Assembly (NCBI GenBank): GCA_029557215.1
Contig: JAKPQQ010000215.1
Span: forward strand, 3,875 to 67,874
Reading direction: 5' to 3'
Origin: Fibrobacterota bacterium
Lineage (GTDB): Bacteria; Fibrobacterota; Fibrobacteria; UBA5070
Length of the DNA: 64,000 nucleotides
The translations under genes were made by a program, and so were the position numbers. Positions 14,080 to 35,562 of this stretch are shown here, in pieces; positions within the stretch are counted from its first letter, which is position 1; each line of letters starts with the position of its first letter. The notes beneath the pieces were generated by a model, which had not been told where the DNA came from, did no database searches, and worked only from the letters and a program-made list of their open reading frames with translations.

Positions 14080-14114
14080 TCCCCCTCCCTGCCAGGGAGG
14101 GCCGGGGTGGGGGA
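14080..14114. repeat. REP-like unit (CCCTCCCTG..AGGGAGGG family)
   Basis: TCCCCCTCCCTGCCAGGGAGGGCCGGGGTGGGGGA directly after the ispG stop; its reverse complement resembles the unit at 24483. Confidence 0.65.
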
Positions 14115-14118
14115 TGTT

Positions 14119-15930
<1,812 letters not shown>

Positions 15931-15941
15931 GGCACGGAAAT

Positions 15942-16610
15942 CTACTTGGTCGCGACGACCGCGTAGCAGATGCCCAGATCGAAGCTCCTGGGCCGCACGT
16001 CGCGGAACCCCTTGCGCTCCAGAAGCTCGACGTAGGCCTGCACGGGAACGAACCCGCGCGTGGATCTCACCAGGTATTCGTAGGCGTCGCGGTTGGATCC
16101 GAACGCCTTGGCCACCAGCGGCAGCGCCACAGGAGCGACCAACCCGTAGAACGCCCTGGCCGCCAGCGTGGACGGCCGGAAGAACTCCAGCGTCAGGAAC
16201 ACGCCGCCCGGCTTGAGCACGCGGGCCACCTCGTCGACGCCCATCGCGAGGTCGTCCAGGTTGCGCATCCCGAACCCGCACAGCACGGTGTCGAAACTCG
16301 CGTCCTTGAACGGCATATTCAACGCGTCGGCCTGGATGCCCGAAGGCAGGCCCTTGGCCGGAAGCGACGACATCATCCCGAAGGAAAAGTCGGCCACCCG
16401 CGAAAGCGAGGTCGCCAGGCCCGCGTCGTGCGCCGCGTTCAGGAAATCGCCGGTCCCCCCGCAGAGATCCAGGATCTTCTGGCGGCGCTTGGGGAGCATG
16501 TCCACCGCCTTGCGCCTCCAGGCCAGGTCGCGCCGTGCGGATAGGACATGGTCCAGCATGTCGTAGCGACCGCTGATCCGATCGAACATCTCCTGGATGG
16601 CCTTGCTCAA
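15942..16610 (-). CDS. menG: Demethylmenaquinone/ubiquinone methyltransferase
   Basis: 'MFDRISGRYD..LS...D.AWR', 'LDLCGGTGD', 'GFGMRN', 'RVLKPGG..LEF', 'AYEYL'; TTG start overlaps the UbiD stop. Confidence 0.88.
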   Translation of the reverse strand: MSKAIQEMFDRISGRYDMLDHVLSARRDLAWRRKAVDMLPKRRQKILDLCGGTGDFLNAAHDAGLATSLSRVADFSFGMMSSLPAKGLPSGIQADALNMPFKDASFDTVLCGFGMRNLDDLAMGVDEVARVLKPGGVFLTLEFFRPSTLAARAFYGLVAPVALPLVAKAFGSNRDAYEYLVRSTRGFVPVQAYVELLERKGFRDVRPRSFDLGICYAVVATK

Positions 16611-18409: not shown

Positions 18410-18483
18410 GTTGGTCCAAAGATACCTTTCGCGCCATCTTGAACCCCTGGGTTCCACATCGCGACCAATGCGCCGGAACACGA

Positions 18484-19797
18484 ATGCTCGAATCTCGCCC
18501 TGAGGGCAACCTCACCTCCCACCACGGCCATTTCGGATGGCGCCGGATCTACCGGACTCCCCGCTCGGCGATCGCGACGCTTTGGCACGCGCCGCTGGCC
18601 AACGCGCGATTCGTCATCGTTTCCGGCGCGTTCTGGACCGTGAACCTCGCGATCACCGAACCCTACCGGTTCCTGTTCTTCAGCCGGCTCGGACTTTCGC
18701 CCGAGGCCATCGGCAAGTTGTTTTCCGCCGACCTCGTGATCCGCGCCATCGGGCTCCTGCTTTCCGGAACCATGATGCGAGCCTTCGGAGCCAAGCGCAT
18801 GCTGGTCCTGGCCGACATCGTTTCGTGGGTGGTTCCGTATCTGCTGCTGGGGTTCGCGACCCAACCCTGGCACGCCGTCGTCGCCGTGCTGCTCACCTCG
18901 CTCAATTCCTTCGCCAGCACCCCCTACAATTGCCTTCTCGCCGAAGGCATGCCCGCCGAGCGCCGAACCAAATCCTACGCGTTCCTCCACCTCTGGAACA
19001 TGGCGCCGGCCCTGCTTGTCCCGTGGCTGGCGGGCGAGCTGATCAACAACAGCCCGTTCGGACCCACGCTGCGCATCCTGTTCCTGGTCCAGGCGGGATC
19101 GATGGCCGTCGGGATCTGGTTCCGGTACCGCAAGCTCCACGACCTCCAACCGGGATCGACCTCGGCCAAACAAGGCCTGCTCGGCACGCTGCGCCAAATC
19201 GTGAAGACCCCCGGCTTTCTTCCCTCCTGGAGCGCGTTGGCCATCCAGGGCGTGTTCCAGAGCGTCACCAACGCGTTCCTGGCGATCTATCTCACGCGCG
19301 AACTGCGGATGTCCGACAGGATGCCCGGCTGGCTCGCGGAAATGGGCGCCATCGGATTCGCCGTCGGGACGCTGGCCATCCAACCCAAGCTGAAGGAATC
19401 GAACGTCCCCCGCTTCGCGGCCGTGGCGCTCACCATCCACGCGGCGGCGATCGCCCTGCTGCTGTTGCATCCAAGCCGCAATTGGACCATGGCCATCTGG
19501 CTCGTGGGCGGACTCTGCTCGGCGGTGCACGGCGCCGCCACCAGCTCGCTCTTGACTTCGGCGCTTCCGGAAAACGCCCGCGACCACGGATTCGCCTTGA
19601 GCTACGTGGGAGTGCACCTGGTGGGCGCCCTGTGCATGCCCCTCGCCGGAATCCTCCTCGATCGGCGCCTGGGCATGTTCCCGTTGCTGGTGACGGGATT
19701 CCTGCTGGCATGGGCGTTCGGAATCTGGCTCACCCGAACCATGAATCCCGTCGCGACGGTATCCACCTGGCAACCAGAGGACGCCTCCCAGAGCTGA
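18484..19797 (+). CDS. MFS transporter
   Basis: About 12 hydrophobic segments; degenerate motif A 'GTMMRAFGAKRML'; 'LLAEGMPAERR'; 'SALPENARDHGFA'; start codon uncertain. Confidence 0.8.
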   Translation: MLESRPEGNLTSHHGHFGWRRIYRTPRSAIATLWHAPLANARFVIVSGAFWTVNLAITEPYRFLFFSRLGLSPEAIGKLFSADLVIRAIGLLLSGTMMRAFGAKRMLVLADIVSWVVPYLLLGFATQPWHAVVAVLLTSLNSFASTPYNCLLAEGMPAERRTKSYAFLHLWNMAPALLVPWLAGELINNSPFGPTLRILFLVQAGSMAVGIWFRYRKLHDLQPGSTSAKQGLLGTLRQIVKTPGFLPSWSALAIQGVFQSVTNAFLAIYLTRELRMSDRMPGWLAEMGAIGFAVGTLAIQPKLKESNVPRFAAVALTIHAAAIALLLLHPSRNWTMAIWLVGGLCSAVHGAATSSLLTSALPENARDHGFALSYVGVHLVGALCMPLAGILLDRRLGMFPLLVTGFLLAWAFGIWLTRTMNPVATVSTWQPEDASQS

Positions 19798-19806: not shown

Positions 19807-20715
19807 TCAGGCCTCCGCCTGAAGGACCCGAGCCGGGGCCGGATCCGACGGCTCCGAAGCCCGCGGCCGGGCGTCCCAATCGCGCCAGACGACGTCGGGA
19901 TGCTCCTTGAACCGTTCCTGCATGACCTCCAAGGCCTGGCGGTTGTTGTCGACCAGGATGCAGTCGCGGCCATTTCTTGTCGCGGCATCCCCGAACGATC
20001 CGCTTCCCGCGAAGAAATCGCACAGCATGTCGCCCGGACGCGAATGGACCTTCACGATGCGCTCCAGGATCCCCAACGGCTTCTGGGACGGGTAGCCGGT
20101 CTTCTCCCTGGACTGCGGACTCACGATCGTGTGCCACCAGGCGTCGGTGGGGGTCTTCCCGCGTTCGGCCTTCTCAGAACCCACCAGATGCGGCGACAGG
20201 TAAGGTAGCCGGTCGCAGGCGTCCAGATCGAACACGTACCGCTCCGGATCCTTGGCGTACCAGAAAATGACATCGTGCTTGGCCGGCCAGCGCCGCTTGG
20301 TGCGGGCTCCGTAGTCCCAGGCCCAGACGATCTCGTTCATGAACGAGCTCCGCCCGAACAACTGGTCGAGCAGGACCTTGCAGTAGTGGGATTCGGAAAC
20401 GCCCATGTGCAGGAACAGGCTGCCGTCGTCGGCCAGGACACGCTTGGCTTCCACGAGGCGTTCTTCCAGGAACAGGAGATGCTCGTCCTGGTGGAAGATG
20501 TCGGAAAACGACTTGGTCCCCACCCGGACCGACGCGTAGCGCCGGTCCTCGAACCCCAGATGCCCCTCGCCGCGCCGTTCGATGCTGATCTCGTGGCGAT
20601 GCATGATCTTGCCCGTGTTGTACGGCGGATCGATGTACACGAGCGAAACCGAACCGTCGGGAATCCTCTTCAGGACCTCGAGATTGTCGCCGAAATGGAT
20701 TTCAAGCCTGGCCAA
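19807..20715 (-). CDS. Site-specific DNA methyltransferase (N6-adenine/N4-cytosine, beta-class), no adjacent REase
   Basis: 'GDNLEVL', 'YIDPPY', 'FMNEIVW', 'YPSQKP', 'DFFAGSGS' (DPPY precedes FxGxG). Confidence 0.9.
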   Translation of the reverse strand: MARLEIHFGDNLEVLKRIPDGSVSLVYIDPPYNTGKIMHRHEISIERRGEGHLGFEDRRYASVRVGTKSFSDIFHQDEHLLFLEERLVEAKRVLADDGSLFLHMGVSESHYCKVLLDQLFGRSSFMNEIVWAWDYGARTKRRWPAKHDVIFWYAKDPERYVFDLDACDRLPYLSPHLVGSEKAERGKTPTDAWWHTIVSPQSREKTGYPSQKPLGILERIVKVHSRPGDMLCDFFAGSGSFGDAATRNGRDCILVDNNRQALEVMQERFKEHPDVVWRDWDARPRASEPSDPAPARVLQAEA

Positions 20716-24538: not shown

Positions 24539-24573
24539 GGGTCGGTGCACATCGTTGCACCGGCCCTTTTTTT
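24539..24573 (+). terminator. Rho-independent terminator of sodB
   Basis: GGGTCGGTGCA-CATCGT-TGCACCGGCCC stem followed by TTTTTTT. Confidence 0.8.
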
Positions 24574-24649
24574 GTGCCCCCAGATCCCGACGCTGCCAAA
24601 GCCCATTCACTTGTCAAGTGCGACGAAGATTCCATTCTTTCCTGGCCTG

Positions 24650-25225
24650 ATGCCGACGCCTTTGGAAGAACGCCTTCGAGAGATCGTCCGAAACTCTCGA
24701 TTCATCATGGCAACGATGAGTGCAGCTCGATCATTGCATCTGCCGCAATGGTGCATCGGTGCGGGTGCGATCCGGAATCTGGTGTGGGACCATCTGCACG
24801 GATACACCACGTCGAAAAAGCCTGGCGACATCGATTTCGCCTATTTCGATCCTTCCGACATTTCTTGCGAGCGAGATCGACTGGTGGGGAGCATGCTGGA
24901 GGGATCCTGCCCCGGCATCCCTTGGGAAGCGGTCAACCAAGCTGGCGTGCATCTTTGGTATGAAGAGTGTTTTGGCAAGCCTATCGAACCTTTCCATTCC
25001 CTCTCGGAAGCGTTGGCTTCCTGGCCGGAATTCGCCACTTGCGTCGGTGTGCGCTTGGAGGATGACAATTCCTTGACCGTCATCGCTCCGCATGGACTCG
25101 CAGATCTTTTCGAGATGAAGATCCGACGGAATCCAACTCGAATCGATCTCGAAACATTCCGCAGACGGATCTCGGATAAACGTTTCGCCGACAAGTGGCC
25201 CTTGGTCCGGATCATCGACGGTTAA
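24650..25225 (+). CDS. Nucleotidyltransferase family protein (DUF925/NTP_transf_6-like)
   Basis: 'GAGAIRNLVWD.LHG', 'DIDFAYFD', 'WEAVNQA', 'WPEFATCVGVRL', 'IAPHGL.DLF', 'KWP'. Confidence 0.85.
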   Translation: MPTPLEERLREIVRNSRFIMATMSAARSLHLPQWCIGAGAIRNLVWDHLHGYTTSKKPGDIDFAYFDPSDISCERDRLVGSMLEGSCPGIPWEAVNQAGVHLWYEECFGKPIEPFHSLSEALASWPEFATCVGVRLEDDNSLTVIAPHGLADLFEMKIRRNPTRIDLETFRRRISDKRFADKWPLVRIIDG

Positions 25226-25238
25226 ATTCATACGATCA

Positions 25239-25667
25239 ATGCCCATCCACGCTCGACCGTCGCACAGACGTCATCCTGGACTCCAAATCGCGCTGATTCT
25301 GGCAACCATCGCGGTCGGATTGGCCTCGCGGAAATTTCCCGGCTTGTTGCCGACGTTTCTTGGTCAGTATCCGGGCGATGCGTTGTGGGCGACCATGGTC
25401 TTCTTCCTGTGGGGCCTGGTCCTTCCGAAGGCAAGCATCGCGCGCGTAGCCGCATTGGCGCTGGCCACCAGCTGGATCGTGGAATTCGCGCAATTTATCC
25501 AGGCTCCATGGCTTGTCGCCCTCCGCTCCACCACGATCGGGCACCTGATACTTGGCTCCACTTTCCACGCGCCGGATCTTGTCGCCTACACCGTCGGTGT
25601 GGGGTTGGGTGCGGGCTTGGAGCGAGCCCTCCGCGGCAAAATCCAGAAGGAGACGAAACAGCCATGA
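25239..25667 (+). CDS. DUF2809 family membrane protein
   Basis: 'GLASR', 'YPGDALWA', 'VEFAQ..QAPWL..LRSTTIGHLILGSTF...DLVAYTVG'. Confidence 0.85.
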   Translation: MPIHARPSHRRHPGLQIALILATIAVGLASRKFPGLLPTFLGQYPGDALWATMVFFLWGLVLPKASIARVAALALATSWIVEFAQFIQAPWLVALRSTTIGHLILGSTFHAPDLVAYTVGVGLGAGLERALRGKIQKETKQP

Positions 25668-26566
25668 CCATTCCATGCATCGCCGTCCTGATCGCGACCT
25701 GTATGTCGTCCAGCTCCTCGGAGAAACCGCCCCGGACCGAGCGATTGCGGCAATTGGTGACGGAGCTGGCCATCCCGACTCGAAACTGGCTGGACACGGC
25801 GTCCTTGAACCGGACCGCTTCCTTTGTCCGACAACAGATCGAATCGTCGGGATTCGCCTGCTCGGAACAGGTCTTCGTCGTCGACAAACGAAACTACAGG
25901 AACCTCGAGTGCACGATCCCGGGGAAATCGAAGGATCTCGTCGTGGTGGGAGCCCATTATGACGTCGCAGGAGAACAACCCGGAGCCGACGACAACGCCA
26001 GCGGTGTCGCCGGGTTGATCGAACTGGCTCGCGCGTATTCGGAAACCGGACACAAACCGCGCAGCAGCATCCGTCTGGTGGCATTCACCTTGGAAGAACC
26101 GCCGTTCTACGCCACCGAGGACATGGGCAGTTTTCACCACGCGAAAAAGCTCAAGGACTCCGGATTCACCGTCAAGGCGATGATCGCGCTGGAGATGATC
26201 GGCTATATCGGCGATTCGCTCGAACAACGGTACCCGCCGGGAGTTCCATCCGATCGGTACCCCAAGTTCGGCAACTTCTACGCCGCCGTGTCCAACATGG
26301 AATCGGCGGGATTGACGAAAGGATTCAAGGCCGTCGCCGACAAATCCAAGACGATTCCCGTCGTCACCCTGAACGCGCCAGAAGGTGTGGAATGGTCCGA
26401 CCACATGAACTACTGGAAATTCGGCTTTCCCGCCTTCATGCTCACCGACACGGCCTTCCTGCGAAACTTCGCCTACCACACCGCCGCGGACACCCACGAC
26501 CGTTTGAACTACCCCGCGATGTCCCAACTCGTGGATCTGCTGTTCAAATACACCAGCAAGCTCTGA
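25664..26566 (+). CDS. M28 family metallopeptidase (YfbL-like)
   Basis: 'VVVGAHYD', 'PGADDNASG', 'FTLEEPP', 'LEMIGY', 'SDH', 'YHTAADT'; ATGA overlap with the DUF2809 stop. Confidence 0.9.
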   Translation: MTIPCIAVLIATCMSSSSSEKPPRTERLRQLVTELAIPTRNWLDTASLNRTASFVRQQIESSGFACSEQVFVVDKRNYRNLECTIPGKSKDLVVVGAHYDVAGEQPGADDNASGVAGLIELARAYSETGHKPRSSIRLVAFTLEEPPFYATEDMGSFHHAKKLKDSGFTVKAMIALEMIGYIGDSLEQRYPPGVPSDRYPKFGNFYAAVSNMESAGLTKGFKAVADKSKTIPVVTLNAPEGVEWSDHMNYWKFGFPAFMLTDTAFLRNFAYHTAADTHDRLNYPAMSQLVDLLFKYTSKL

Positions 26567-26596
26567 AGCCCTCCCGAAGCGGGTACTTTTGAGGGA

Positions 26597-27268
26597 ATGA
26601 TCAAACGCGAATTGCTCCAGACCGTGACGGTCCCGGGCAGTACGGCCCAGATGACTCTGCAGAGGCAGGGCAAGGAATACTCCATCTGGGTCGATGGGGT
26701 GCCGCTGATGACCACCCGCCAGAGCGGATCCGAGGTGGCGCTGGCCGAGCTGGGTTGCGCGCATCTCAAGGGAAAAGCTGACGGCGAAGTCCTGGTGGGC
26801 GGCCTGGGGATGGGCTTCACGCTCGCCGCCACGCTTGGGATGGTGGGCCCCGACGCCAAGGTGAAGGTCGCGGAACTCGTCCCGGCCGTGCACGAATGGA
26901 ATCGCGACCTGCTCGGGGAGTTCGCCGGTTTTCCCTTGAAAGACCTGCGCGTCTCGGTGGACATCGCCGACGTGGCCGATGTGCTGCGATCCAACCCCAA
27001 CCGGTTCGACGCGATCCTGCTGGATGTCGACAACGGCCCCAGCGGCATGACCCAGGACAAGAACACCTGGCTGTACTGGCCCGAAGGCCTGGGTGTCGTG
27101 GCCAAGGCGCTGCGCCCCAAAGGCGTGGTCGCGATCTGGTCGGCGTATTCCGATCCCGCGTTCCACAAACGCCTGCTCCAGCGGGGTTTCAAGGTCCAGG
27201 AACACCAGGTCGGCGCCCGCGGCAAGGGGGGCGGCAGCCGCCATTTCATCTGGACAGCCCAGAAATAA
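26597..27268 (+). CDS. Spermidine synthase-like SAM-dependent methyltransferase
   Basis: 'LMTTRQSGSEVALA', 'VLVGGLGMGFTL', 'VAEL', 'FDAILLDVDNGP', 'AIWS'. Confidence 0.85.
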   Translation: MIKRELLQTVTVPGSTAQMTLQRQGKEYSIWVDGVPLMTTRQSGSEVALAELGCAHLKGKADGEVLVGGLGMGFTLAATLGMVGPDAKVKVAELVPAVHEWNRDLLGEFAGFPLKDLRVSVDIADVADVLRSNPNRFDAILLDVDNGPSGMTQDKNTWLYWPEGLGVVAKALRPKGVVAIWSAYSDPAFHKRLLQRGFKVQEHQVGARGKGGGSRHFIWTAQK

Positions 27269-27355
27269 CCGACCGCACCACGGATTGGGCTGGCTCTATT
27301 TGCCAGTGCAGCCTTCCACGAGACTTCCTCCGACGAGTTCAGGGTAACACAACAG

Positions 27356-28570
27356 ATGATCAGCGCCTCCAAAGCATCCTTCGTCAACCGCTCCGCGACC
27401 ATTTCCTTCGAGGCCGCGGTGGAGATCGCCGACGATCTTTCCATCGACATCCGCCTGGACCATGACCCGAAGCTGTTCGAAAAATTCGCCGCCCTGTGCA
27501 ACCAGATCGAAAAGGCCGGTGGCGCCATCTCCGACGACGGCTACTTCTACGCCGCCTTCACGGTGGACGGACAACGCGTGCAGGCCAACGACATCCTGAT
27601 CGCGACGCGGCCCGAGGCCCTCGAATCCGGTCTGCGCATCGAATCCAAGGTCGATCTGCTGACCTACGGAGACCAGCCCCCGAGCGACCACCTGGAACTC
27701 CTGCTCAACGTCGGACGCGACCAGATGGTGGCAGGACTGGGCATCCTGGGGGAATCCTTCGAGACGACGGATTTCGGGACCGTGGAAATCCTGGCCGGAC
27801 CCGATACCGGACGCTGCATCTTGCGCAGCCAGCTCAAGACCGGCATCCCTTACCCCGAAAACAAGATCCTGGAAGTCGTCCGATTCCTGTCCGGGATCGA
27901 CGTGAACTGGATCGAGGCGCAAGCCGCCGGCAAGCGCGTGGTCCGCGCGGCCAGGGACCCGTTGTTCCTGGATCACGAATTTTCCCCCATGCCCCAAGGC
28001 GACCGGGCCTCGGCCATCAAGATGTTCGACGCCATCGCGAAATTCGTGGGAGCGAACGCGCAAAAGCATTCCAGCAGCGAGATCGACACGCTGTCGAACA
28101 TCCGGCAGGCCAGCAGGAATCTGGTCAATTTCCGTCTGGTCTTGGGCGCCGCGGTGGAACACCTGCTCAAGCGGTTCCCGGGCAAGGTCGGCATCGGCCA
28201 GGACACGTTGCAGCATGTCGACGAAAGCATCTTCCTGGTGGACAACGCGGGGCTGCACCCGAGCATCAAGGAAAAGCTGAAGTCGGCCCTGGTCAACCAG
28301 CGCAACCTCCAGCCCAAGCACGTGCTCGCCGCGATGAAGGCCCTGGGTCTGGTGGAGAGCTTGCACATCAAGACCTACGAGAACATCCGCAACATGGGAT
28401 CCCAAGGCGATTCGTCGAGCCTGAAGGAGGCCAACGACACCCTGCGCAAAACCTCGGTGGTCCTGGATCTCGTCTACCGGATCCTGCTCAACGGCGTCGC
28501 GTATTCCGGCCGCTACCGTTCGCCCATCAAGCAGGTAGACACGATGCTGAAATCCGTCCCCTTGGCCTGA
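27356..28570 (+). CDS. Hypothetical protein, ApeA-like with C-terminal HEPN-like domain (RxxxxH degenerate: RNMGSQ)
   Basis: Beta-rich N-half with 'EVVRFLSG', then 'LVLGAAVEHLL', 'IKTYENIRNMGSQG', 'LVYRILLNGVAYSGRY', which match the ApeA/MAE_28990-type HEPN pattern (E..L / RN..xHG / il.liGY.G.Y) by eye. Confidence 0.55.
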   Translation: MISASKASFVNRSATISFEAAVEIADDLSIDIRLDHDPKLFEKFAALCNQIEKAGGAISDDGYFYAAFTVDGQRVQANDILIATRPEALESGLRIESKVDLLTYGDQPPSDHLELLLNVGRDQMVAGLGILGESFETTDFGTVEILAGPDTGRCILRSQLKTGIPYPENKILEVVRFLSGIDVNWIEAQAAGKRVVRAARDPLFLDHEFSPMPQGDRASAIKMFDAIAKFVGANAQKHSSSEIDTLSNIRQASRNLVNFRLVLGAAVEHLLKRFPGKVGIGQDTLQHVDESIFLVDNAGLHPSIKEKLKSALVNQRNLQPKHVLAAMKALGLVESLHIKTYENIRNMGSQGDSSSLKEANDTLRKTSVVLDLVYRILLNGVAYSGRYRSPIKQVDTMLKSVPLA

Positions 28571-28579
28571 ACCGGTCGC

Positions 28580-30361
28580 ATGGAAGACGACGCGCCCGAC
28601 GACCCGACGGATTCCGACGTCCTTTCTCCCGAAGCCGCGCTGTTGCGCAAGTTGCGGCTGGAAGTCGCGCGCGAAGCGGAAGAAGGCCGCCGGGAGGTGA
28701 CCCGCGATTGGGCCAAACCTCTGGAGCGCCGGATCGAAGACGGCCTGGCGATCGCCGGTGCCATGTGCGAGCACAAGGGCAATGGTTGGATCGAGGTCGA
28801 CTGCCCCGGACAGAAGAGCCGGTTCCGGGTCGGCGATCTGGTGCGGGTGGGATTCGGGAATCCTCTGACCGAGCGAGCCATCACCGCCTTTGTCGAAGAA
28901 GACACGTCCGACAATCTGCTCCTGTACGCGAGCCCTCGGGAACAAGGTCTGTACGCCGCCGAACTCGCTTCGCTGCCCGGCGAGCGGGTGCTGGACCTGG
29001 GTGTGATGGACCTGAGCGCCACGGTCATGGGCGCGCTCCAACTGGTGTCGGAAAGCCGACGCGGACAGGATCGCGTGCTCCCGCTGCTGTTGGGCAGAAT
29101 CCGTCCACATCTGGACAATGACCTTTATCGGCAAGCACTCTCGCTGGGAGCATCGGCCGGTCTGAACTGGAACCAATGCGAAGCCCTGGCCCAAGGCTAT
29201 TCCAGCGACCTCTGCGCCTTGGTGCAAGGCCCTCCGGGAACCGGCAAGACCCGGGTCCTGGCCGAACTGGCCGGTCTGTTGGCGAAGGCGGGCAAACGGG
29301 TGCTGGTGACCTCGCTCACGCACCGGGCGATCGACAACGCGCTGGTGGCCATCGGCAAGCGATGGGGTCGCGACGTCCCGTGCGCCAAGTTCGGCGGATC
29401 GGCACCCGAGCACCCGGCGGTATTTTCGTTCCCGGATTGGAAATCCTGCCCCTGGAAGCGGTTCACCTACGGACTGGTCGCCGGCGCCACCCCGTTCGCC
29501 GCCGCGGGCGCCCGCCTGGAAGGCGCGGATTTCGACATCGCGCTCATCGACGAGGCTTCGCAGCTCACGGTTCCCAACGCATGCATGGCCCTGATCAAGG
29601 CCGACCGGTGGGTCCTGTTCGGCGACCACCGCCAACTGCCTCCGGTGATGCACACGCTGAGCGGTCCCGAACTCCCCAAGGCGTCGATTTTTGGCATGCT
29701 GGCCGGGCGCGGCTACAGCACCATGCTCACCGAAACCTGGCGGTTGGGTCCGGTGCTGGCCGATTGGCCCAGTCGGCACTTCTACGGCGGCGCCCTGGAG
29801 CCGTCCCAAGCTTTCGCGCACGAGACGTTGATGCTCCGCCAAGCCCCCCAACGGTTCCAGGCACTGCTCGACCCCGCGCACCCGCGCGTTTTTTGTCGAG
29901 TGGCGCATCGCGATTCACGACGCAGATCGGAAGAAGAAGCCGACCTCGTGGCGGGAATCGTGCAGGAGCTGCTGCGCTGCGGCGTCGCGCCCAGGGAGAT
30001 CGCGGTCATCGCGCCGTTTCGCGCCCAGGCCAACGCCATCCGCATCGCCCTGCAGAAATCGGATCCGGACCGGGTTCCTTCGCGCGATCTCGTGGTCGAT
30101 ACCGTGGAGCGCATGCAGGGCCAGGAGCGCGACGTGGTGATCGTGTCGTTCACGGCATCGGATCCCGCATGGGTCACGCGCCTGGCCGAGTTCTACTTCC
30201 AGCCCGAACGTCTAAACGTGGCCGTGACGCGCGCCAAACGCAAACTGATCCTGGTCGGATCGCCCCGCGTGCTCGACGCGTTCCCCGCCGACCCGCGGCT
30301 TCGCGAAGGCGTAAACCTTCTGCGTTCCCTGCTGGCCGAATCGACCTTGGTGGACGCGTAG
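28580..30361 (+). CDS. SF1B helicase, Upf1/Dna2/NAM7-like (AAA_11 + AAA_12)
   Basis: 'LNWNQ', 'VQGPPGTGKT', 'THRAIDN', 'IDEASQ', 'GDHRQLPP', 'LTETWR', 'IAPFRAQ', 'DTVERMQGQERD', 'RLNVAVTRAK'. Confidence 0.92.
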   Translation: MEDDAPDDPTDSDVLSPEAALLRKLRLEVAREAEEGRREVTRDWAKPLERRIEDGLAIAGAMCEHKGNGWIEVDCPGQKSRFRVGDLVRVGFGNPLTERAITAFVEEDTSDNLLLYASPREQGLYAAELASLPGERVLDLGVMDLSATVMGALQLVSESRRGQDRVLPLLLGRIRPHLDNDLYRQALSLGASAGLNWNQCEALAQGYSSDLCALVQGPPGTGKTRVLAELAGLLAKAGKRVLVTSLTHRAIDNALVAIGKRWGRDVPCAKFGGSAPEHPAVFSFPDWKSCPWKRFTYGLVAGATPFAAAGARLEGADFDIALIDEASQLTVPNACMALIKADRWVLFGDHRQLPPVMHTLSGPELPKASIFGMLAGRGYSTMLTETWRLGPVLADWPSRHFYGGALEPSQAFAHETLMLRQAPQRFQALLDPAHPRVFCRVAHRDSRRRSEEEADLVAGIVQELLRCGVAPREIAVIAPFRAQANAIRIALQKSDPDRVPSRDLVVDTVERMQGQERDVVIVSFTASDPAWVTRLAEFYFQPERLNVAVTRAKRKLILVGSPRVLDAFPADPRLREGVNLLRSLLAESTLVDA

Positions 30362-30405
30362 GAGCACCTGCGCCCACCCGCGATTCCTAGGTTGATTCGG
30401 CTACG

Positions 30406-32370
30406 ATGGCGCGTCTTCTTCCGGAACATCCCAGCTGCAGCGTGTCGCCCATGGTCGCCAGGGTGCACAGGCTAGTGCAAGCCCTGCCCGAGCGGTTCTT
30501 CGCGTGGTCGCCCGTGGTGCGGGAAGGTTCCGACCTCCCCGATTTCTGGGTGGTGGAAGAAAAGACCGGGCGATGCGTCCATCTGGTGGTGTCCGACGCC
30601 ACCGAGGACCAGGCGCGCGGCCCGGGCCTGTTCGAGGCGGCGGAGGCATGGAGACCGCCGTCGGAGACGGAATCCGCACGCGTGGAACGCGTCAAGGATC
30701 GCCTTGGCGAAGACGCCGGCGCGGGCGCGGTGTTGTTCCCGGACATTCCCGCCGACATGCTCGACAAGAACATCGGGGGGTGGCCCCGCGCCGGTCGCGA
30801 AATCTGTCGACCGGCCGCGTTCACCGACTGGATCGACGCGCAGCTGGGCCAAGCGCTCGATCCCGAACGCTCGCGAACGATCCGCTCCCTGTTCTGCCCG
30901 GAAACCGTGCTGCACAAACGCCACGCGATGCGTCGGAATCCGTCAGAACCCGATGTTCCGCGATTCTTGACCTGGAAACAGGAAGAAATCCTGAAGACCG
31001 ACCTCGATCCGGGAGCGGATGGTCGCCAGGCCGCCGGGGATTTCGGGCTCCTGGTGGTGCAAGGGGTGGCCGGGAGCGGCAAGACCCTGATCCTTTTGCA
31101 CCGGGCCCTGCTGCTGTCCAAACTCCGGCGCGAAAGCCGCATCCTGGTGCTCACCTGCAACAAGCCGCTCCAGGTGGAACTCCGACGGCGGTTCCAGGAA
31201 TTGTCGGGAAGATCGGCGTCGGTGGAGATCCTGACGTTCCATGGATTCTGCCTCAAGCGCTGGCCGGGCGAAGACCGCCCCCGCGTCCTGCAGGCCTCGC
31301 TGCGGCGATCTCTCCTGGACGAATCGCTCGCCACCCTGCGACGCCCGCTTCTGATGCGCCGGCACCTGGAGGAGGAACTCGCCTGGATCTTCGACAACGG
31401 ATTCCAGGACGAAGACACCTACGCGAAATCGCCGCGTCGGGGCCGCGGATTCCGGATGGACGCAGAACTCCGCGCCGGAATGTGGACCGCCGCGAACCGG
31501 TTCCGGACCGAATGCGCCAAGGAGAAGGCCGCCGATTGGAACCTGCTCCCGTTGTTGTTCCGCGAAAGCGCCCAGGGCAAGGAACTCGCGGGCTACGACG
31601 CGATCCTGGTCGACGAGGCGCAGTTCTTCGCACCGGTCTGGTTCGATTGCCTGCGAGCGTTCCTCGCGCCACGCGGCCACCTGTTCCTGTCGGCCGATCC
31701 CACCCAGGGGTTCCTCCGCAAAGGGACCTCGTGGAAATCGGTGGGGCTTTCCGTCCACGGCAGATCGCGGCGCCTGGAACGCAGCCACCGGTCCACGCGC
31801 GCCATCATGGAGCTCGCCTGGCGGGTGTGGAGCACCCGCGCGGAGGCGACGGATTCCGACATCGTGGTCCCCCGGATGGAAGGGATGGGGGACGGTCCCG
31901 CTCCGACGTGGTACCGCTTCCCCGACGTCCGTTCGGAGTTCGCCTGGATCGAAGACCAGGTGGCCGGCTTCCTGGACGGCGGCGGAGCCCCCCGCGACAT
32001 CCTGGTGCTGCACGACGACTGGAACGGAGCCGCCGAACTGCGCGAACGGCTGGAATCGCGCATCGGTGCCGATCGCATCGCCGACGCCCGCGACGGATCC
32101 AAGCCGCAGGCCCTGCGCGTGTGCCAGCTCAACGCCGCCACCGGCCTGGAAAGCCCCGTGGTGTTCCTGTCGGGAACCCAGAGGATCTTCGAGCGGGAAG
32201 GATCTCCGGAACTGGACGAAGAAGCCCGCTCGCAGGCGCGCGACGAGGCCACGCGCAAGATCTACATGGCCCTCACGCGCGCGGGATGGCGCCTGGTGGT
32301 CACGAGCACCGGCCCGCTGCCGCCGGAAATCGTCCAGTGCTTCGGAGCGAACCCTCCGACCGGAGGCTGA
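30406..32370 (+). CDS. UvrD-like SF1A helicase with degenerate NERD-like N-terminal region
   Basis: 'LTWKQ', 'VQGVAGSGKT', 'LVLTCNKPL', 'TFHGF', 'LVDEAQFF', 'ADPTQ', 'LERSHRST', 'TGLE', 'YMALTRA'; N-terminal 'PDFWVV' and 'AVLFP'. Confidence 0.8.
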   Translation: MARLLPEHPSCSVSPMVARVHRLVQALPERFFAWSPVVREGSDLPDFWVVEEKTGRCVHLVVSDATEDQARGPGLFEAAEAWRPPSETESARVERVKDRLGEDAGAGAVLFPDIPADMLDKNIGGWPRAGREICRPAAFTDWIDAQLGQALDPERSRTIRSLFCPETVLHKRHAMRRNPSEPDVPRFLTWKQEEILKTDLDPGADGRQAAGDFGLLVVQGVAGSGKTLILLHRALLLSKLRRESRILVLTCNKPLQVELRRRFQELSGRSASVEILTFHGFCLKRWPGEDRPRVLQASLRRSLLDESLATLRRPLLMRRHLEEELAWIFDNGFQDEDTYAKSPRRGRGFRMDAELRAGMWTAANRFRTECAKEKAADWNLLPLLFRESAQGKELAGYDAILVDEAQFFAPVWFDCLRAFLAPRGHLFLSADPTQGFLRKGTSWKSVGLSVHGRSRRLERSHRSTRAIMELAWRVWSTRAEATDSDIVVPRMEGMGDGPAPTWYRFPDVRSEFAWIEDQVAGFLDGGGAPRDILVLHDDWNGAAELRERLESRIGADRIADARDGSKPQALRVCQLNAATGLESPVVFLSGTQRIFEREGSPELDEEARSQARDEATRKIYMALTRAGWRLVVTSTGPLPPEIVQCFGANPPTGG

Positions 32371-32409: not shown

Positions 32410-33060
32410 CTATGCGGAAAGTTCTGTCGCCAACATCCGCAGCGCCTTGCCGCGATGGCTGAGGGCATGCTTGGTCTCCGACGGAAGCTCCGCGAAGGTC
32501 TTGTCGGACACCGATTCGTCCTGGAGCACCGGAAAAAAGAGCGGATCGTAGCCGAACCCGCCGGTGCCCCGCTCCTGGATCCCCACCCGCCCTTCGCAGA
32601 ACGCGAGCGCCGAATGATGGTGCGCACCCGACAAATCCTGGAAATGGATCGCGCAGGCGAACGCGGCGGCGGTGGTGTCGCCAGGCTTCATGCCGGTGTG
32701 GACCAATCGGCGCACCAGCTCGGACCGGTTGGCTGCATCGCCCGATCCGGCACCCGCCATTTCGGCGAACCGCGCCGAATACACGCCCGGCGCGTCATCC
32801 AGGACGTTCACCGCCAAACCCGAATCGTCGGCGGCCACGGCGTCGGGCATGGAAGCGAGGTCGGCGGTTCGCAACGCGGCCACCGCGAATCCGCATTTGA
32901 GCGCGGCGTTCCCGACAAAATCCGGTTCGGTCTCCTCCGGCTCGGGAACGGCGGGAAGCCAATCGCGGATGGACGCCACGCGCCAACCCAGGGGAGCGAG
33001 GATTTCCGAAAATTCCTGGAGCTTGTGTTTGTTGCCCGTCGCGACCGCCATGGTTTTCAT
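32410..33060 (-). CDS. rdgB: Non-canonical purine NTP pyrophosphatase (RdgB/HAM1)
   Basis: 'ATGNKHKLQE', 'PEETEPDFVGNA.LK', 'ADDSGL', 'PGVYSARF', 'GFGYDPLF', 'KHALSHRGKA'. Confidence 0.92.
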   Translation of the reverse strand: MKTMAVATGNKHKLQEFSEILAPLGWRVASIRDWLPAVPEPEETEPDFVGNAALKCGFAVAALRTADLASMPDAVAADDSGLAVNVLDDAPGVYSARFAEMAGAGSGDAANRSELVRRLVHTGMKPGDTTAAAFACAIHFQDLSGAHHHSALAFCEGRVGIQERGTGGFGYDPLFFPVLQDESVSDKTFAELPSETKHALSHRGKALRMLATELSA

Positions 33061-33306
33061 GGCATGCAAAGGTAGAGCACCACCGACGTAGGAATCCGTC
33101 CGACATGAAATGACCGGTTTCGCCGATGGCAATCGCGCCGCGCGCACCCGATCTTTGGAACCGGAACCTGGCATGCGGATCGTTCGCGACAAGGCCCCGC
33201 TGCCATGCGGGACCGTTTCGCGCCGCACGTCGCGCTCCCGGGCCATCCCGGCCGTGCCGGACGTGGATGCCCACCAATTTCCCACCTCCGGCACGAAGGA
33301 GCTCCC

Positions 33307-35406
33307 ATGATCGGATCGCATAGGAATCGTCGAACCGCAATATCCCTCGGATTGGCCGCCGCCCTGGCCGCGGCGGCAGGTGTGCAAGCCGCTCCGCTGT
33401 TCGCACCTGAGAACGAGAGGGCGCCCTCGATATCGGCCCAGCAATCCAAGCGGCTCGCCAGCCTGCGCAAGGAGCTGGGCAAGAAGATCGTACGCATGGT
33501 CAAGATCGACGTCGACGCGCTCCAAGACAGCACCCTGGAGTTCGGACTCGAAGGCAATTCCATGCGCCGCGCCAAACGCGACCACATCGAGCGGCACAAG
33601 GACGGCGGCTACTCCTGGTGCGGCAAGCTCGAAGGCATCGACGGCGAAGCGGTCATTTCCGTCAACGGAGACGAGATCGAAGGCACCATCCAGGATGGAA
33701 CCAAGCTCTACCAGATCCGCCAGATCGGGCCTGGCAACCACGCCCTGATCGAAGTCGACCAGTCGCAGTTCCCGGAGAGCGGCACACCCGTGGCCAACCA
33801 GGACGACATCGCCCGCATCCGCACCCAGATCGACAACGCGCTGATGGCGATCGGAACCAGCCAGATGGGATCCGACACGTCGATCGTCCGCGTCGCGGTC
33901 GCCTACACGGCCCGTGTCGACAGCCTTCTCGGCGGCGCCACCGCGGTGGCGAACCGGATCAACCAGGCCGTTTCGCTCACCAACCAGAGCTACAGGAACA
34001 GCCAGGTCAAGGCGCGGCTCCAGCTCGCCGGAAGGGTCCGCATGACCTACCGCGAAACCGGCAAGACCTACAGCCAGATGCTGTCCGACTTCCGCGGCAC
34101 CACCGACGGGAACATGGACAACATCCACACCCTGCGCAACTCCTGGTCGGCCGACATCTCTGTCCTGCTGGCCGACATGGGAGGCACCGGCGCCTGCGGT
34201 GTGGCCTACGTGATGGCCTCGGCCACCAGCGCCTTCGCGGTGGTCGACTACAACTGCGCCACCAGCGTCTACACCTTCGCGCACGAGATCGGCCACCTGT
34301 ACGGCGCCCTCCACAACATCGAGGACTCCCCGGCACTCACCCCGTTCGCCTACGGCCACGGGTTCCGCCAGCCCACATGGCGCACGGTCATGTCCTACAA
34401 CTGCTCGCCTTCCTGCCCGCGGATCAACTACTGGTCCAATCCCCGCGTCACTTACGGCGGCGTGGCCATGGGCACCGTCGATCGCCAGGACAACGCGCGC
34501 GTCCTGAACACCACCGCCCCGATCCTGGCGAGCTTCCGCGTCTCCGTGCCCGGCATGTGGCGCTACACGGGAACCCCCTGCACGGGCGGCTCCTGTCCGG
34601 GATGGCAGATGATGGACAACAATCCGAACATCGTGGCCATGGCCGCGAGCACGTCCTACACCTACCAACTGCGCAACAACGGGGCGATCTACCGGTACAC
34701 CGGAGTCCCTTGCTCGGGAAGCTCCTGCACCGGCTGGACCCTGCTCAACAGCACATCCACCAACGTGGCGATCGCCGCCGACGGAACCAACCTGTACCGC
34801 ATCCTGCGAAACGGCGAAATCTGGCGCTACAACGGCAGTTCCTGGCAGATGCTCGACAACAACCCCAACGGCAAGGCGATCGCCGCCTCGGGAGGCAACC
34901 TCTACCAGCTGCACCAGACCGGCGCGATCTGGAGGTTCACCGGCACGGTCTGCAGCGGATCGAGCTGCCCCGGTTGGACCTTGATCCACTCCGGCACCGG
35001 GAACAAGGCCATCGCCGCCGACGGCGCCAGGCTCTACCGCATCGAGAACTCGGGCCTGGTGGCCCGCTACTCCGCCGGCGCCTGGACCACGCTCAGCACG
35101 GCGACCAACAACCGCGACATCGTCGCGGGCGGCGGATACCTCTACGAGCTGAAGTCCAACGGCCAGATCTGGCGCCACAACGGATCGGGTTGGACCATGC
35201 TCGACAACAACCCCGCCACGGTGGCCCTCACAGCCGGTTCCGGCACCAGCCTGTACCAGCTCCACGCCGACGGCAAGGTCTGGCGCTTCACCGGAACCGT
35301 CTGTTCGGGAAGCTCCTGCCCGGGCTGGCAGATGCTCGACAACAACCCGAACACCACCGGCATCGAAGCCGCGGGTTCGGCGCTCTTCCAGCTCCACGGC
35401 AACTGA
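33307..35406 (+). CDS. Secreted reprolysin-like (M12) zinc metalloprotease with C-terminal tectonin-like propeller repeats
   Basis: RBS AAGGAG; signal peptide; prodomain; 'FAHEIGHLYGALH' (HExxHxxGxxH), Met-turn 'RTVMSY', 'WSNP'; repeats 'WR[YF]TGTxCxGxSCPGWQMLDNNPN'. Confidence 0.9.
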   Translation: MIGSHRNRRTAISLGLAAALAAAAGVQAAPLFAPENERAPSISAQQSKRLASLRKELGKKIVRMVKIDVDALQDSTLEFGLEGNSMRRAKRDHIERHKDGGYSWCGKLEGIDGEAVISVNGDEIEGTIQDGTKLYQIRQIGPGNHALIEVDQSQFPESGTPVANQDDIARIRTQIDNALMAIGTSQMGSDTSIVRVAVAYTARVDSLLGGATAVANRINQAVSLTNQSYRNSQVKARLQLAGRVRMTYRETGKTYSQMLSDFRGTTDGNMDNIHTLRNSWSADISVLLADMGGTGACGVAYVMASATSAFAVVDYNCATSVYTFAHEIGHLYGALHNIEDSPALTPFAYGHGFRQPTWRTVMSYNCSPSCPRINYWSNPRVTYGGVAMGTVDRQDNARVLNTTAPILASFRVSVPGMWRYTGTPCTGGSCPGWQMMDNNPNIVAMAASTSYTYQLRNNGAIYRYTGVPCSGSSCTGWTLLNSTSTNVAIAADGTNLYRILRNGEIWRYNGSSWQMLDNNPNGKAIAASGGNLYQLHQTGAIWRFTGTVCSGSSCPGWTLIHSGTGNKAIAADGARLYRIENSGLVARYSAGAWTTLSTATNNRDIVAGGGYLYELKSNGQIWRHNGSGWTMLDNNPATVALTAGSGTSLYQLHADGKVWRFTGTVCSGSSCPGWQMLDNNPNTTGIEAAGSALFQLHGN

Positions 35407-35432
35407 TCCGCTCCTCCGTCGGATCTTCCTTG

Positions 35433-35460
35433 GGCGACCTTCCGGTCGCCTTTTTCGTTT
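35433..35460 (+). terminator. Rho-independent terminator
   Basis: GGCGACC-TTCC-GGTCGCC followed by TTTTTCGTTT. Confidence 0.75.
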
Positions 35461-35562
35461 CCGGTCCAACCGACCGTGCCGCGACCAAGGCTCCGCCCGG
35501 ACACGTGTCGATGCGATGTTTCATGCCCTCGGATTCGGCCAAACGGTTTCTTCCAAAGCTCT

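Follow-up and report, generated by a model that had tools for sequence, protein, structure and literature searches.

A candidate dual-helicase defence cassette and its degenerate ApeA-like neighbour in a Fibrobacterota bacterium: two probably separable modules

The locus described here raises one question: do three neighbouring genes of a Fibrobacterota bacterium form a single defence system, or do they belong to separable modules? The window, i.e., the whole stretch of 64,000 nucleotides that was analysed, is part of contig JAKPQQ010000215.1 (assembly GCA_029557215.1). A first-pass annotation had described in it three co-oriented genes with gaps of 9 bp (gene 1/gene 2) and 44 bp (gene 2/gene 3) behind an AT-richer leader, and had taken them for one three-part unit. 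Coordinates and GC content confirm the layout:

27269..27355, strand not given: leader 5' of gene 1, 87 bp, modestly AT-richer (58.6% GC vs. 65.5% for the window)
27356..28570, + strand: gene 1, 404 aa, ApeA-like, beta-rich N-domain, then a HEPN-like domain at the C-terminus whose active site is degenerate
28580..30361, + strand: gene 2, 593 aa, predicted SF1B Upf1/Dna2-like helicase, family-specific N-domain of about 190 residues, without nuclease
30406..32370, + strand: gene 3, 654 aa, predicted SF1A UvrD-like helicase, conserved N-domain of about 210 residues

The GC content at the third codon position (GC3) of the three ORFs is 0.79-0.86, as in real genes. Gene 1 (61.7% GC) resembles the low-GC segment upstream (59.6%) and not genes 2 and 3 (66-67%). 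No sigma-70-like site was found in the 87-bp leader by a search that is uninformative, and the gene upstream of the leader is not conserved in the related genome G287. The window flanks contain housekeeping genes (SOD, M28 peptidase, Ham1/RdgB and a two-component system). Only 2 of the 39 ORFs of the window match PADLOC, one of them being GlgB, and GajA is absent from this search. The methylase closest to gene 1 is 6.6 kb away and no R-M system adjoins gene 1.

The two helicases are considered first, with the following features:

29228..29251, + strand: gene 2 Walker A, GPPGTGKT, residues 217-224, invariant in 7/7 homologues
30406..31035, + strand: gene 3 N-domain, residues 1-210, conserved across phyla, no intact nuclease triad
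31063..31086, + strand: gene 3 Walker A, GVAGSGKT, residues 220-227, G220-K226 invariant in 18/18 sequences

Gene 2 matches Pfam AAA_11 (3.2e-24) and AAA_12 (9.4e-34), both above cut-offs, and its DEASQ and other helicase motifs are likewise invariant in the 7 homologues. Its profile matches in the PDB (DNA2, IGHMBP2, Upf1 and Sen1) concern the helicase part alone. The best solved relative is DNA2 (5eax, 1.7e-51), with profile positions 144-574 facing DNA2 residues 571-1032. Since this match is restricted to the helicase part, gene 2 is considered as devoid of the Dna2 nuclease, in agreement with the first-pass annotation, and its identification as Dna2 itself (i.e., with an N-terminal PD-(D/E)xK nuclease and a Fe-S cluster) is ruled out. 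Residues 1-190 contain no Pfam domain. To judge from its motifs, gene 2 encodes an intact Upf1/Dna2-like SF1B helicase without nuclease. A homologue encoded by a Vibrio plasmid shares 37% identity with it over nearly the full length (E 2e-112).

Gene 3 matches Pfam UvrD-helicase (1.7e-12) and UvrD_C (8.3e-07). Among solved structures, UvrD, PcrA and Rep match it best (profile positions 219-565), and its DEAQFFAP motif (residues 403-410) is invariant in the same 18 sequences. The gene 3 product thus reads as an intact UvrD-like SF1A helicase. The UvrD-like part of the original description therefore stands, but the supposed NERD-like remnant at the N-terminus is not confirmed: (i) the N-domain has no PDB or Pfam match, Pfam NERD giving none at E<=0.1; (ii) no (D/E)xK is found in the N-domain of any of the 18 homologues and no acidic residue lies two positions before the Lys of LLKVS; (iii) none of these homologues has a conserved PD-(D/E)xK triad. 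In the alignment of these 18 sequences, the Asp of «PDF» is found in 15 and the Lys of LLKVS in 10. The PADLOC model «NERD+UvrD» (C3a187) does match gene 3 (5e-29), the best of the two stretches being residues 396-634, i.e., the helicase part; in a gene 3 paralogue, the match reaches model positions 189-280 only. Among the stretches listed, none concerns the N-terminal part of this model. At least 912 clusters are homologous to gene 3 over its full length at E<=1e-20, and a Vibrio homologue shares 31% identity with it (E 1e-71).

Gene 1 has no match in Pfam (E<=0.1), PADLOC or NCBIfam. Its predicted structure (pLDDT 93.5, pTM 0.88) is beta-rich for residues 1-200 and helical in the C-terminal domain. 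The corresponding features are:

27356..27955, + strand: gene 1 N-domain, residues 1-200, resembling tail-tube/Hcp/PilZ-like beta barrels, presumed sensor
27998..28525, + strand: gene 1 HEPN-like domain, residues ~215-390, fold matches over ~228-388
28388..28405, + strand: degenerate HEPN motif R345-N-M-G-S-Q350, R-x4-H being canonical in relatives

The best fold match of the N-domain is 2guj_A (Z 8.5, rmsd 2.8 over 96 residues), together with many tail-tube and Hcp entries at Z 6-8. Of the 8 fold-search rows spanning the C-domain, 5 are annotated HEPN proteins: 2hsb_A (Z 7.0, 112 residues aligned), 1wwp_B (6.6), Csm6 6tug_A (6.4), the HEPN toxin 8xdj_A (6.3) and 5yep_B (5.9). The model thus points to a four-helix HEPN fold, it being understood that Z values of 5.9-7.0 can be reached by chance with helical bundles and that Z <8 is not decisive for helical domains. 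The ApeA-like layout with a HEPN-like end, as first described, is found again in the structure model and in the fold matches.

The active site is however degenerate. Arg345 is invariant in the 45 sequences aligned, and Asn346 and Glu268 are retained as well, but gene 1 does not conform to the R-x4-6-H motif: Gln is found at the His position in the 13 members of its clade (13/13), whereas His occupies the position equivalent to Q350 in the 24 distant members (24/24) and in P0017. No compensating His is conserved near the motif in the gene 1 clade. His337 is invariant in this clade, in a column without His in the distant members. Purifying selection acts on the gene, which shows no decay: dN/dS is 0.18-0.44, with the lower value for the HEPN-like domain, which is the most constrained part of the gene and the most conserved part of the clade. 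It is likely that this domain does something. Since the catalytic His is Gln in the clade while selection keeps the gene, gene 1 is probably no longer a canonical HEPN RNase, and the effector role first assigned to it is doubtful. Perhaps it has become a derivative that binds a ligand or RNA and works alone or modulates its neighbours.

The distant relatives of gene 1 (~450 aa, without Pfam or PADLOC family) have both the Arg and the His of R-x4-H invariant (24/24) and stand alone in variable defence neighbourhoods. Of the 116 proteins encoded around them (55 loci), 24 match PADLOC (<=1e-10), in 18 loci, vs. 2 of the 39 window ORFs taken as control (one-sided Fisher p = 0.017). The matches include Type IIG, Dsr1-like, AbiE and PD-T4-6 proteins; in locus L062, the S and R subunits of a Type I R-M system flank the gene 1 relative. 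The canonical members of the family look like stand-alone, often R-M-embedded HEPN RNases.

In the accessible text of PMC3710099, ApeA is defined by a HEPN domain at the C-terminus, fused to a beta-rich domain at the N-terminus. Neither ApeA_NTD1 (PF18862) nor HEPN_Apea (PF18739) matches gene 1 (E<=0.1) or 28 of its relatives (<=0.01); PF18739 occurs in 4 genomes of the phylum out of 296, none of them among the 10 of the genus, and PF18862 has no match in the genome itself at E<=10. An hhalign comparison of the gene 1 family with true HEPN_Apea proteins gave probabilities of 18% (E 0.0013), 0.7% and 0.7%. In a language-model search, 26 of 30 neighbours of gene 1 are clusters in which 13-50% of the members carry ApeA_NTD1/HEPN_Apea (score 0.96). 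Gene 1 belongs to a large unannotated ApeA-like family having a beta-rich sensor domain and a C-terminal HEPN domain.

The distribution of the three genes is mostly at variance with the three-part unit first proposed. Of the 296 genomes of the phylum, 10 belong to the genus, and 5 of these contain gene 1; the other 286 lack it. Gene 1 adjoins the helicase pair in three close relatives only (the present genome G000, G287 and G288), and in G288 an unrelated, lipoprotein-like alpha/beta hydrolase gene separates it from gene 2. In two genomes (G281 and G282) gene 1 is present while homologues of genes 2 and 3 are absent from the genome (E<=1e-20). Conversely, helicase pairs lacking gene 1 exist in the same genus, in the form of paralogues, and on all 4 Vibrio plasmids; no member of the gene 1 superfamily is found near the pair in the 7 other adjacent-pair loci, nor in the 3 single-helicase loci (10/10 without match). 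No homologue of either helicase is found in 80 loci of distant gene 1 relatives. It must be added that gene 1 precedes gene 2 in all three genomes (G000, G287 and G288) although dS reaches 0.7-1.2, and that the 9-bp gap is kept in G287, which suggests a co-transcription and fits a functional link in this lineage.

Genes 2 and 3, on the contrary, travel together. Of the 8 loci of the family that can be assessed, 6 have the two genes side by side in the same orientation (G000, G288, G286, G283 C1, G283 C9 and G287 C11); one further locus is cut by a contig end. They are also adjacent on all of the 4 Vibrio plasmids, which are large, that hold a near-full-length homologue of either gene. The spacing varies from a 13-bp overlap to 50 bp, and the identities to genes 2/3 drop in parallel across loci (83/70, 75/61, 67/58, 45/38, 42/35 and 37/31%). 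The pairing is broken in G280 (gene 2 alone); in G279 the two genes are on different contigs and gene 3 contains an in-frame TGA. When two Vibrio plasmids are compared, the similarity is limited to 4881-8542, i.e., exactly genes 2 and 3: the borders are exact and the movement of the cassette is not tied to replication or conjugation genes. Homologues of gene 3 (E<=1e-30) exist in only 6 of the 296 genomes of the phylum. This patchy distribution and the Vibrio plasmid copies speak against the helicases being vertically inherited repair genes. The best reading of these sequence comparisons is that genes 2 and 3 make up a self-contained cassette that is horizontally mobile.

Defence-island contexts, expected at the outset, were found for the pair elsewhere and not in the window flanks. 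The Vibrio copies (i) adjoin RelE/ParE and HipA, (ii) adjoin an integrase, VapE, HNH and an AbiP-like gene, or (iii) directly follow GajA and GajB. In G287, the paralogous pair has AbiEi/AbiEii on one side and GajB/GajA on the other, and a full-length SngC-like (Shango-type) helicase is encoded nearby. Gabija is thus beside the pair in two loci belonging to two phyla, the neighbouring GajA/GajB scoring 1e-217 to 1e-276. The cassette is absent from 50,697 phage records. These contexts number only about 10, several being from related genomes, against several hundred gene 3 homologues in Chloroflexota and others. The proximity of the pair to Gabija or AbiE may be due to hitch-hiking on mobile DNA. 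No description of the pair was found in the profile libraries or in the literature searched.

Taken together, these data somewhat favour, with a chance a little better than even, the view that two separable modules of a defence type lie side by side in a variable part of the chromosome: a mobile dual-helicase cassette, which is an undescribed candidate anti-phage (or anti-mobile-DNA) system, and a degenerate ApeA-like gene. An integrated three-gene system, in which gene 1 would be the sensor, adaptor or effector of a dual-helicase motor as in a split analogue of HEPN-SF1 fusions like Hhe, is unlikely. The 9-bp gap, the gene order kept despite the divergence, the constraint on the HEPN-like domain and weak matches of gene 2 to Hhe models (PADLOC 2.8e-07, NCBIfam 1.3e-10) argue for it, as do the HEPN domains fused to SF-I helicases that the accessible text of PMC3710099 records. 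However, the juxtaposition represents one evolutionary event in three close relatives, it is interrupted in G288, each part occurs without the other (gene 1 in two genomes, the pair everywhere else, and 0/80 loci of gene 1 relatives with a helicase), the catalytic His is lost and the GC content of gene 1 differs from that of genes 2 and 3.

Two other explanations are less probable still. Pairs of SF1A and SF1B helicases are the motor of RecBCD-type repair enzymes, which, with the lack of a nuclease or other effector domain, the large Vibrio plasmids and the housekeeping flanks of the window, would fit a non-defence module for DNA repair, recombination or replication in mobile elements (plasmid or island maintenance), gene 1 being then a decaying Abi-type remnant. 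This is rather improbable, although a little less so than the explanation that follows: the cassette moves apart from replication and conjugation genes with exact borders, Gabija adjoins it directly in two phyla and AbiE is a further neighbour, it is absent from the phage records, and purifying selection on gene 1 is contrary to decay. The least probable is that gene 1 is an active stand-alone abortive-infection RNase, with a non-canonical R...Q centre or another residue, parked beside an unrelated helicase cassette. The retention of R345, N346 and E268 and the strong constraint on the HEPN-like domain are consistent with it, and HEPN families with a substituted motif or alternative catalytic residues are described in the accessible text of PMC3710099; but the lost residue is precisely the His that is invariant in the canonical relatives, no compensating His is conserved nearby, and the invariant H337 stands in a column where the distant members have no His.

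If the reading as two modules is retained, a most likely mechanism can be proposed for the cassette. RecD and RecB are motors of opposite polarity which drive RecBCD one way along the duplex. Anatomy, motifs, distribution, adjacency and contexts are observed, while complex formation, polarity, target and any defence phenotype are inferred, as follows. The gene 2 and gene 3 proteins would form one complex, starting from a free end or a replication intermediate; the SF1B motor would travel 5'->3' along one strand and its SF1A partner 3'->5' along the complement, both thus driving the complex in the same direction along the duplex. The nuclease-dead-looking N-domain of gene 3 would recognise ends or structures, and foreign DNA would be unwound, stripped of proteins, or passed to host nucleases. 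As no effector or nuclease is evident, this mechanism follows the RecBCD analogy only. A bolder and tentative extension, rather doubtful in its entirety, is that genes 2 and 3 would represent a new nuclease-free two-motor immune class. The SF1B helicase and the SF1A helicase, the latter with a dead-nuclease domain that would sense ends, would then form a RecBCD-like bipolar translocase able on its own to abort the replication or packaging of invading linear DNA. The same extension supposes that an ApeA-derived pseudo-RNase (His->Gln) would have been recruited as sensor or adaptor in one Fibrobacterota lineage. If true, a HEPN domain would have been repurposed from effector to regulator.

The comparison with known systems gives the following picture. 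Like ApeA, a single-gene HEPN anti-phage protein, gene 1 combines in its model a sensor-type domain at the N-terminus with a HEPN domain at the C-terminus; unlike ApeA, it has no HMM match to PF18862/PF18739 and has Gln for the catalytic His. It is also shorter (404 aa) than Ec2ApeA, given as ~583 aa and predominantly alpha-helical in the accessible part of 10.64898/2026.01.26.701840, where tRNA anticodon cleavage, a ring oligomer and a ligand pocket are ascribed to ApeA. The canonical gene 1 relatives located within Type I or IIG R-M operons or next to them (L062, L109 and L036) recall anticodon nucleases of the PrrC/RloC type, PrrC being within the EcoprrI R-M operon according to the accessible text of PMC3710099. 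Unlike PrrC/RloC, gene 1 has no ATPase domain and no sequence relation to them, and is not itself beside R-M.

As for the helicases, gene 3 is, like Gabija GajB, Nhi/AbiO and C3a187, an SF1A helicase of the UvrD type that is extended at its N-terminus. No NERD or other nuclease motif is conserved in it, and the best stretches of its matches lie in the helicase core. Unlike Gabija, the cassette contains no GajA/OLD partner, Gabija being a separate neighbour in two loci; membership is rejected, the GajB matches (up to 3.6e-11) being around Walker A only and GajA being absent from the window. Gene 2, like Mokosh (MkoA/MkoC) and Hhe, is a Upf1-like SF1B helicase of the type found in defence systems. 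Its best PADLOC match is MkoA (4.7e-53), those to MkoC, DpdJ and Hhe being weak. This MkoA match is partial (in the best of two stretches, residues 303-567 vs. positions 775-1081 of 1112), no PLD gene is in or beside the cluster and NCBIfam scores are far below cut-offs; unlike Mokosh, the cassette has neither a PLD partner or fusion nor Vsr, and membership is rejected too. With respect to RecBCD/AddAB, gene 2 is Upf1/Dna2-like and not RecD-like (TIGR01447, 29 bits vs. a cut-off of 310), and the scores for recB (16.9 vs. 696) and addA (26 vs. 861) reduce the resemblance to an architectural analogy. The cassette, accessory and plasmid-borne, differs from these enzymes in having neither nuclease domain nor RecC. 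It nevertheless encodes, as they do, an SF1A (UvrD/RecB-like) and an SF1B motor side by side, and the nuclease-dead-looking N-domain of gene 3 recalls RecC and AddB.

The cluster is best read as two modules, (i) a pair of superfamily 1 helicases and (ii) an ApeA/HEPN-like gene, and the actual lead is the cassette of two helicases, not the three-part system proposed in the first-pass annotation. The features concerned are the following:

27356-28570, forward strand: gene 1, ApeA/HEPN-like ORF, 404 aa
28580-30361, forward strand: gene 2, SF1B Upf1/Dna2-like helicase, 593 aa
30406-32370, forward strand: gene 3, SF1A UvrD-like helicase, 654 aa
32410-33060, reverse strand: Ham1/RdgB-type NTP pyrophosphatase (2.8e-46), converging on gene 3 and closing the cluster

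Genes 2 and 3 represent together 1247 residues. The intergenic gaps are 9 bp (genes 1 and 2) and 44 bp (genes 2 and 3), and a leader of 87 bp with 58.6% GC precedes gene 1. The GC3 of the three genes ranges from 0.79 to 0.86. The window is part of contig C12 of an assembly 80.6% complete and has a high GC content (65.5%). The GC content of gene 1 (61.7%) is close to that of the upstream segment (59.6%) and unlike that of genes 2 and 3 (66-67%). The promoter scan gave 0 promoter-like sites and the terminator-like sites are at about chance level. It must be noted that the stop codons of gene 3 and of the Ham1/RdgB gene are 39 bp apart, and that the latter gene is masked in the ORF list by a spurious minus-strand ORF of 1019 aa (32410-35469).

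The flanks of the cluster in the window are housekeeping genes: SOD, an NTP_transf_6 protein, DUF2809, an M28 peptidase and a methyltransferase-like gene on the 5' side, a reprolysin-like protease and a two-component pair on the 3' side. The segment from SOD to gene 1 (24545-27268), with its 59.6% GC, carries the last four of the 5' genes. In G287, another genome of the phylum, the cluster occupies the corresponding position, following GlgB, IMPase and SOD, and the interval between SOD and gene 1 is occupied by two unrelated ORFs of no family; since this interval differs between the two genomes, it is a variable insertion spot. Among the 39 other ORFs of the window, only 2 match PADLOC at ≤1e-10 (a Type II methylase and GlgB). 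The former, a Type II N6/N4 DNA methyltransferase (19807-20715, reverse strand, MTase_II 3e-116), has an MFS transporter and GlgB as neighbours and no recognised restriction enzyme adjoining it; it is possibly an orphan methylase. The sole RNA family match in the window is a tRNA-Arg(CCG) at 46052-46125. It is followed by about 2.5 kb (46400-48970) where the GC skew is strongly negative (-0.27 at 47-48 kb) and ORFs with the high GC3 of the genome are lacking.

The distribution of the genes does not support the three-part system as a unit. Of the 296 genomes of the phylum, 5 contain gene 1, and these belong to a single genus (5 of its 10 genomes). The gene is directly 5' of gene 2 in the present assembly and in G287, and a lipoprotein-like alpha/beta hydrolase gene separates it from the pair in G288. 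In G281 (92% complete) and G282 (95%), gene 1 is present without any gene 2 or gene 3 homologue at E≤1e-20, its neighbours being peptidases, a GGDEF protein and a P-type ATPase. Reciprocally, the two helicase genes are adjacent without gene 1 in G286, in G283 (two loci) and in a second, paralogous copy in G287. Outside these relatives, the association of the three genes is not observed: the gene 1 superfamily, searched with 34 family members and the family profile, is absent from all 10 pair or helicase loci lacking gene 1, and no gene 2 or gene 3 homologue occurs in any of the 80 metagenomic loci (L033-L112) of distant gene 1 relatives, which were collected with a query alignment of 6 closer sequences. 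The complex prediction for genes 1 and 2 gave a score of 0.00, below the mark, a value that speaks neither way on binding.

Two other candidate partners were rejected. The alpha/beta hydrolases adjoining gene 1 in G288 and G281 are unrelated to each other. The 764-aa gene 5' of the pair in G286 matches neither Pfam nor PADLOC; its product is similar to secreted BNR/sortilin proteins carrying a Por tail.

The anatomy described in the first-pass annotation (ORFs, gaps, absence of a Dna2 nuclease in gene 2, UvrD-like nature of gene 3) is largely right. Gene 2 contains the Pfam domains AAA_11 and AAA_12, and all its SF1 motifs are conserved without change in 7 of 7 homologues. Among solved structures it is closest to DNA2 (helicase part only), IGHMBP2, Upf1 and Sen1, thus it is a SF1B helicase of Upf1/Dna2-like type that lacks the Dna2 nuclease. 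The PADLOC matches of gene 2 are MkoA (4.7e-53), DpdJ, MkoC and Hhe, partial in the stretches displayed, and its NCBIfam matches are far under the family cut-offs. Gene 3 contains UvrD-helicase and UvrD_C, with UvrD, PcrA and Rep as nearest solved relatives (profile positions 219-565). Its N-terminal domain (210 residues) is conserved in at least 912 homologous clusters, full length and 35-38% identical, the sources of which include Anaerolineales, Roseiflexaceae and Thermoflexales. This domain has no Pfam or PDB match; «PD» is found in 15 of 18 sequences and (D/E)xK in none of the 18. The NERD-like remnant claimed for gene 3 is thus unproven and, judging from these motifs, the domain would be a dead nuclease if it has a nuclease fold at all. 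A fragment ending a 1.4-kb contig of the same assembly (C196, 1012-1359) shares 71% identity with gene 3 residues 532-647; it represents a second, diverged copy or else reflects strain heterogeneity in the MAG.

The pair is mobile, occurring both in Fibrobacterota and on Vibrio plasmids, and adjoins Gabija and AbiE. In PLSDB, near-full-length gene 3 homologues are present on only four plasmids, all from Vibrio, and the near-full-length gene 2 homologues are on the same four. There the two genes are adjacent (gaps of 2-8 bp), with 37% identity to gene 2 over nearly the whole gene (2e-112) and 31% to gene 3 (1e-71). Moreover, two of these plasmids are alike only across the two genes of the pair. 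The contexts of the pair comprise RelE/ParE and HipA (locus L113), an integrase, VapE, HNH and an AbiP-like gene (L114), and GajA and GajB immediately 5' (L117; 4e-217 and 1.5e-266). In a low-GC island of G287 a SngC-like helicase (1e-271) and AbiEi/AbiEii precede the pair, which is followed by GajB, GajA and another UvrD-like gene. This defence island (positions 742-18943 of G287:C11:6380-26017, 55.5% GC) also holds two small ORFs and a 415-aa low-GC3 ORF of no family; its last UvrD-like protein (931 aa) has a Top1-type zinc ribbon.

Exceptions to the pairing are the SF1B gene alone in G280 and on a Fulvitalea plasmid, and G279, where the homologues of genes 2 and 3 are on separate contigs. 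The gene 3 homologue of G279 (C12, 5451-7391, 49% identity) contains one in-frame TGA and does not adjoin the gene 2 homologue, which is on its own 2.1-kb contig; this copy is possibly decaying or mis-assembled. The scan of viral contigs with the gene 3 profile gave 1 weak fragment only, and phage records contain no homologue.

By analogy with RecB/RecD, the products of genes 2 and 3 would form a single complex, its two motors having opposite polarity, and would work on foreign DNA at ends or replication intermediates; a two-motor complex acting on foreign DNA is the most likely reading of the pair. No description of the two-helicase system was found in the literature searched, supplementary candidate lists of defence-discovery papers being outside that search, and there is no full-length model for the pair in PADLOC 2.0 (PADLOC-DB of 2023) or NCBIfam 20.0. 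Given the scope of the search and the date of the database, the pair may already be listed as an unnamed candidate. The DARNA preprint is not a match, its architecture being different (N-terminal HEPN), and a cold-seep defence paper mentions only Gabija.

Gene 1 matches no Pfam, PADLOC or NCBIfam family. A word-based search gives only 12 close relatives (62-74% identity); the profile search (1.84 billion representatives) gives 35 proteins, most of them about 450 aa long and 15-20% identical, for which Pfam and PADLOC have no family either. An early structure model (13 close homologues) had a C-domain pLDDT of 65.5 and no Foldseek match at E≤1e-3. The AlphaFold model from a 45-sequence alignment reaches a pLDDT of 93.5 and a pTM of 0.88. 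In this model, residues 1-200 form beta barrels like tail-tube, Hcp and PilZ folds (best 2guj_A, Z 8.5), and residues ~228-388 match HEPN structures: 2hsb (Z 7.0), 1wwp (6.6), Csm6 6tug (6.4), the HEPN toxin 8xdj (6.3) and the HepT-type 5yep (5.9). These HEPN matches come from the exhaustive aligner only; Foldseek against the PDB gave nothing at E≤1e-3, and the sequence profile of gene 1 matched no relevant PDB entry. The predicted structure thus agrees with the HEPN fold initially proposed.

The ApeA-like character holds for the layout and for the language-model neighbours, 26 of 30 of which are clusters partly carrying ApeA_NTD1/HEPN_Apea (score 0.96); it does not hold for membership of the Pfam ApeA families by HMM, nor for the catalytic His, which is a Gln. 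The hhalign comparison with true ApeA sequences gave probabilities of 18%, 0.7% and 0.7%; the reference profile is thin, because just 3 homologues of the reference were found. The ApeA proteins of a 2026 preprint (10.64898/2026.01.26.701840) are longer than gene 1 and chiefly helical. Gene 1 is thus a protein of ApeA-like layout with a predicted HEPN fold, outside the Pfam ApeA families.

The canonical HEPN motif R-x4-H («LRNxxAHG») is found in the distant family members, with R and H invariant in 24 of 24, and in P0017, a relative 29% identical to gene 1. Gene 1 and all 12 close relatives have «IRN/TMGSQG», i.e., Arg is retained and His is replaced by Gln. Comparison of gene 1 with four orthologues gives dN/dS values of 0.18-0.44, with the lower values in the HEPN-like half, thus the gene is under purifying selection and is not decaying. 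The most likely reading of gene 1 is that it descends from an ApeA-like RNase and is non-canonical and probably non-catalytic.

The canonical relatives are often found near defence genes:

L062, 4657-5931: family gene between Type I S and R subunits
L109, 693-2066: family gene beside a Type I methylase
L036, 4717-6045: family gene after a Type IIG enzyme
L043: family gene after a split Dsr1-like pair
L056: family gene before AbiEi/AbiEii

Among the proteins of at least 120 aa within 2 genes of the family gene (55 loci, eight near-duplicate loci being dropped beforehand), 24 of 116, spread over 18 loci, match PADLOC at ≤1e-10, against 2 of 39 for the window ORFs taken as control (one-sided Fisher p = 0.017). 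Some matches of the neighbours are partial or generic (RT-protease, RtcR, PycC), and L075/L076 and L085/L092 are probably not independent. The family of about 450 aa (beta-rich N-domain plus HEPN, invariant R-x4-H) seems to be a stand-alone HEPN defence family without annotation. The split Dsr1-like protein (L043, 4130-7895) is made up of a SIR2-type part (316 aa) and a second part (940 aa), matching one Dsr1 model (2e-60 and 1e-144), and this arrangement 5' of the HEPN-family gene is kept in four contigs (L043, L045-L047).

Two by-products are obtained: (i) a large ApeA-like HEPN family without Pfam, PADLOC or NCBIfam model, recurrent in restriction-modification operons; (ii) a clade swapping the catalytic His for Gln under selection, which bears on how immune RNases become non-catalytic parts. 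If the pair has no phenotype, what remains is two accessory helicases plus one degenerate relic of Abi type. Helicases are frequent in anti-phage systems, e.g., Gabija, Hachiman, Mokosh, Nhi, DISARM and Druantia. To our knowledge, every one of these is coupled with a nuclease or some other effector; a conserved cassette of just two helicases of opposite superfamily 1 types would be a cheap, testable candidate for defence by translocation alone.
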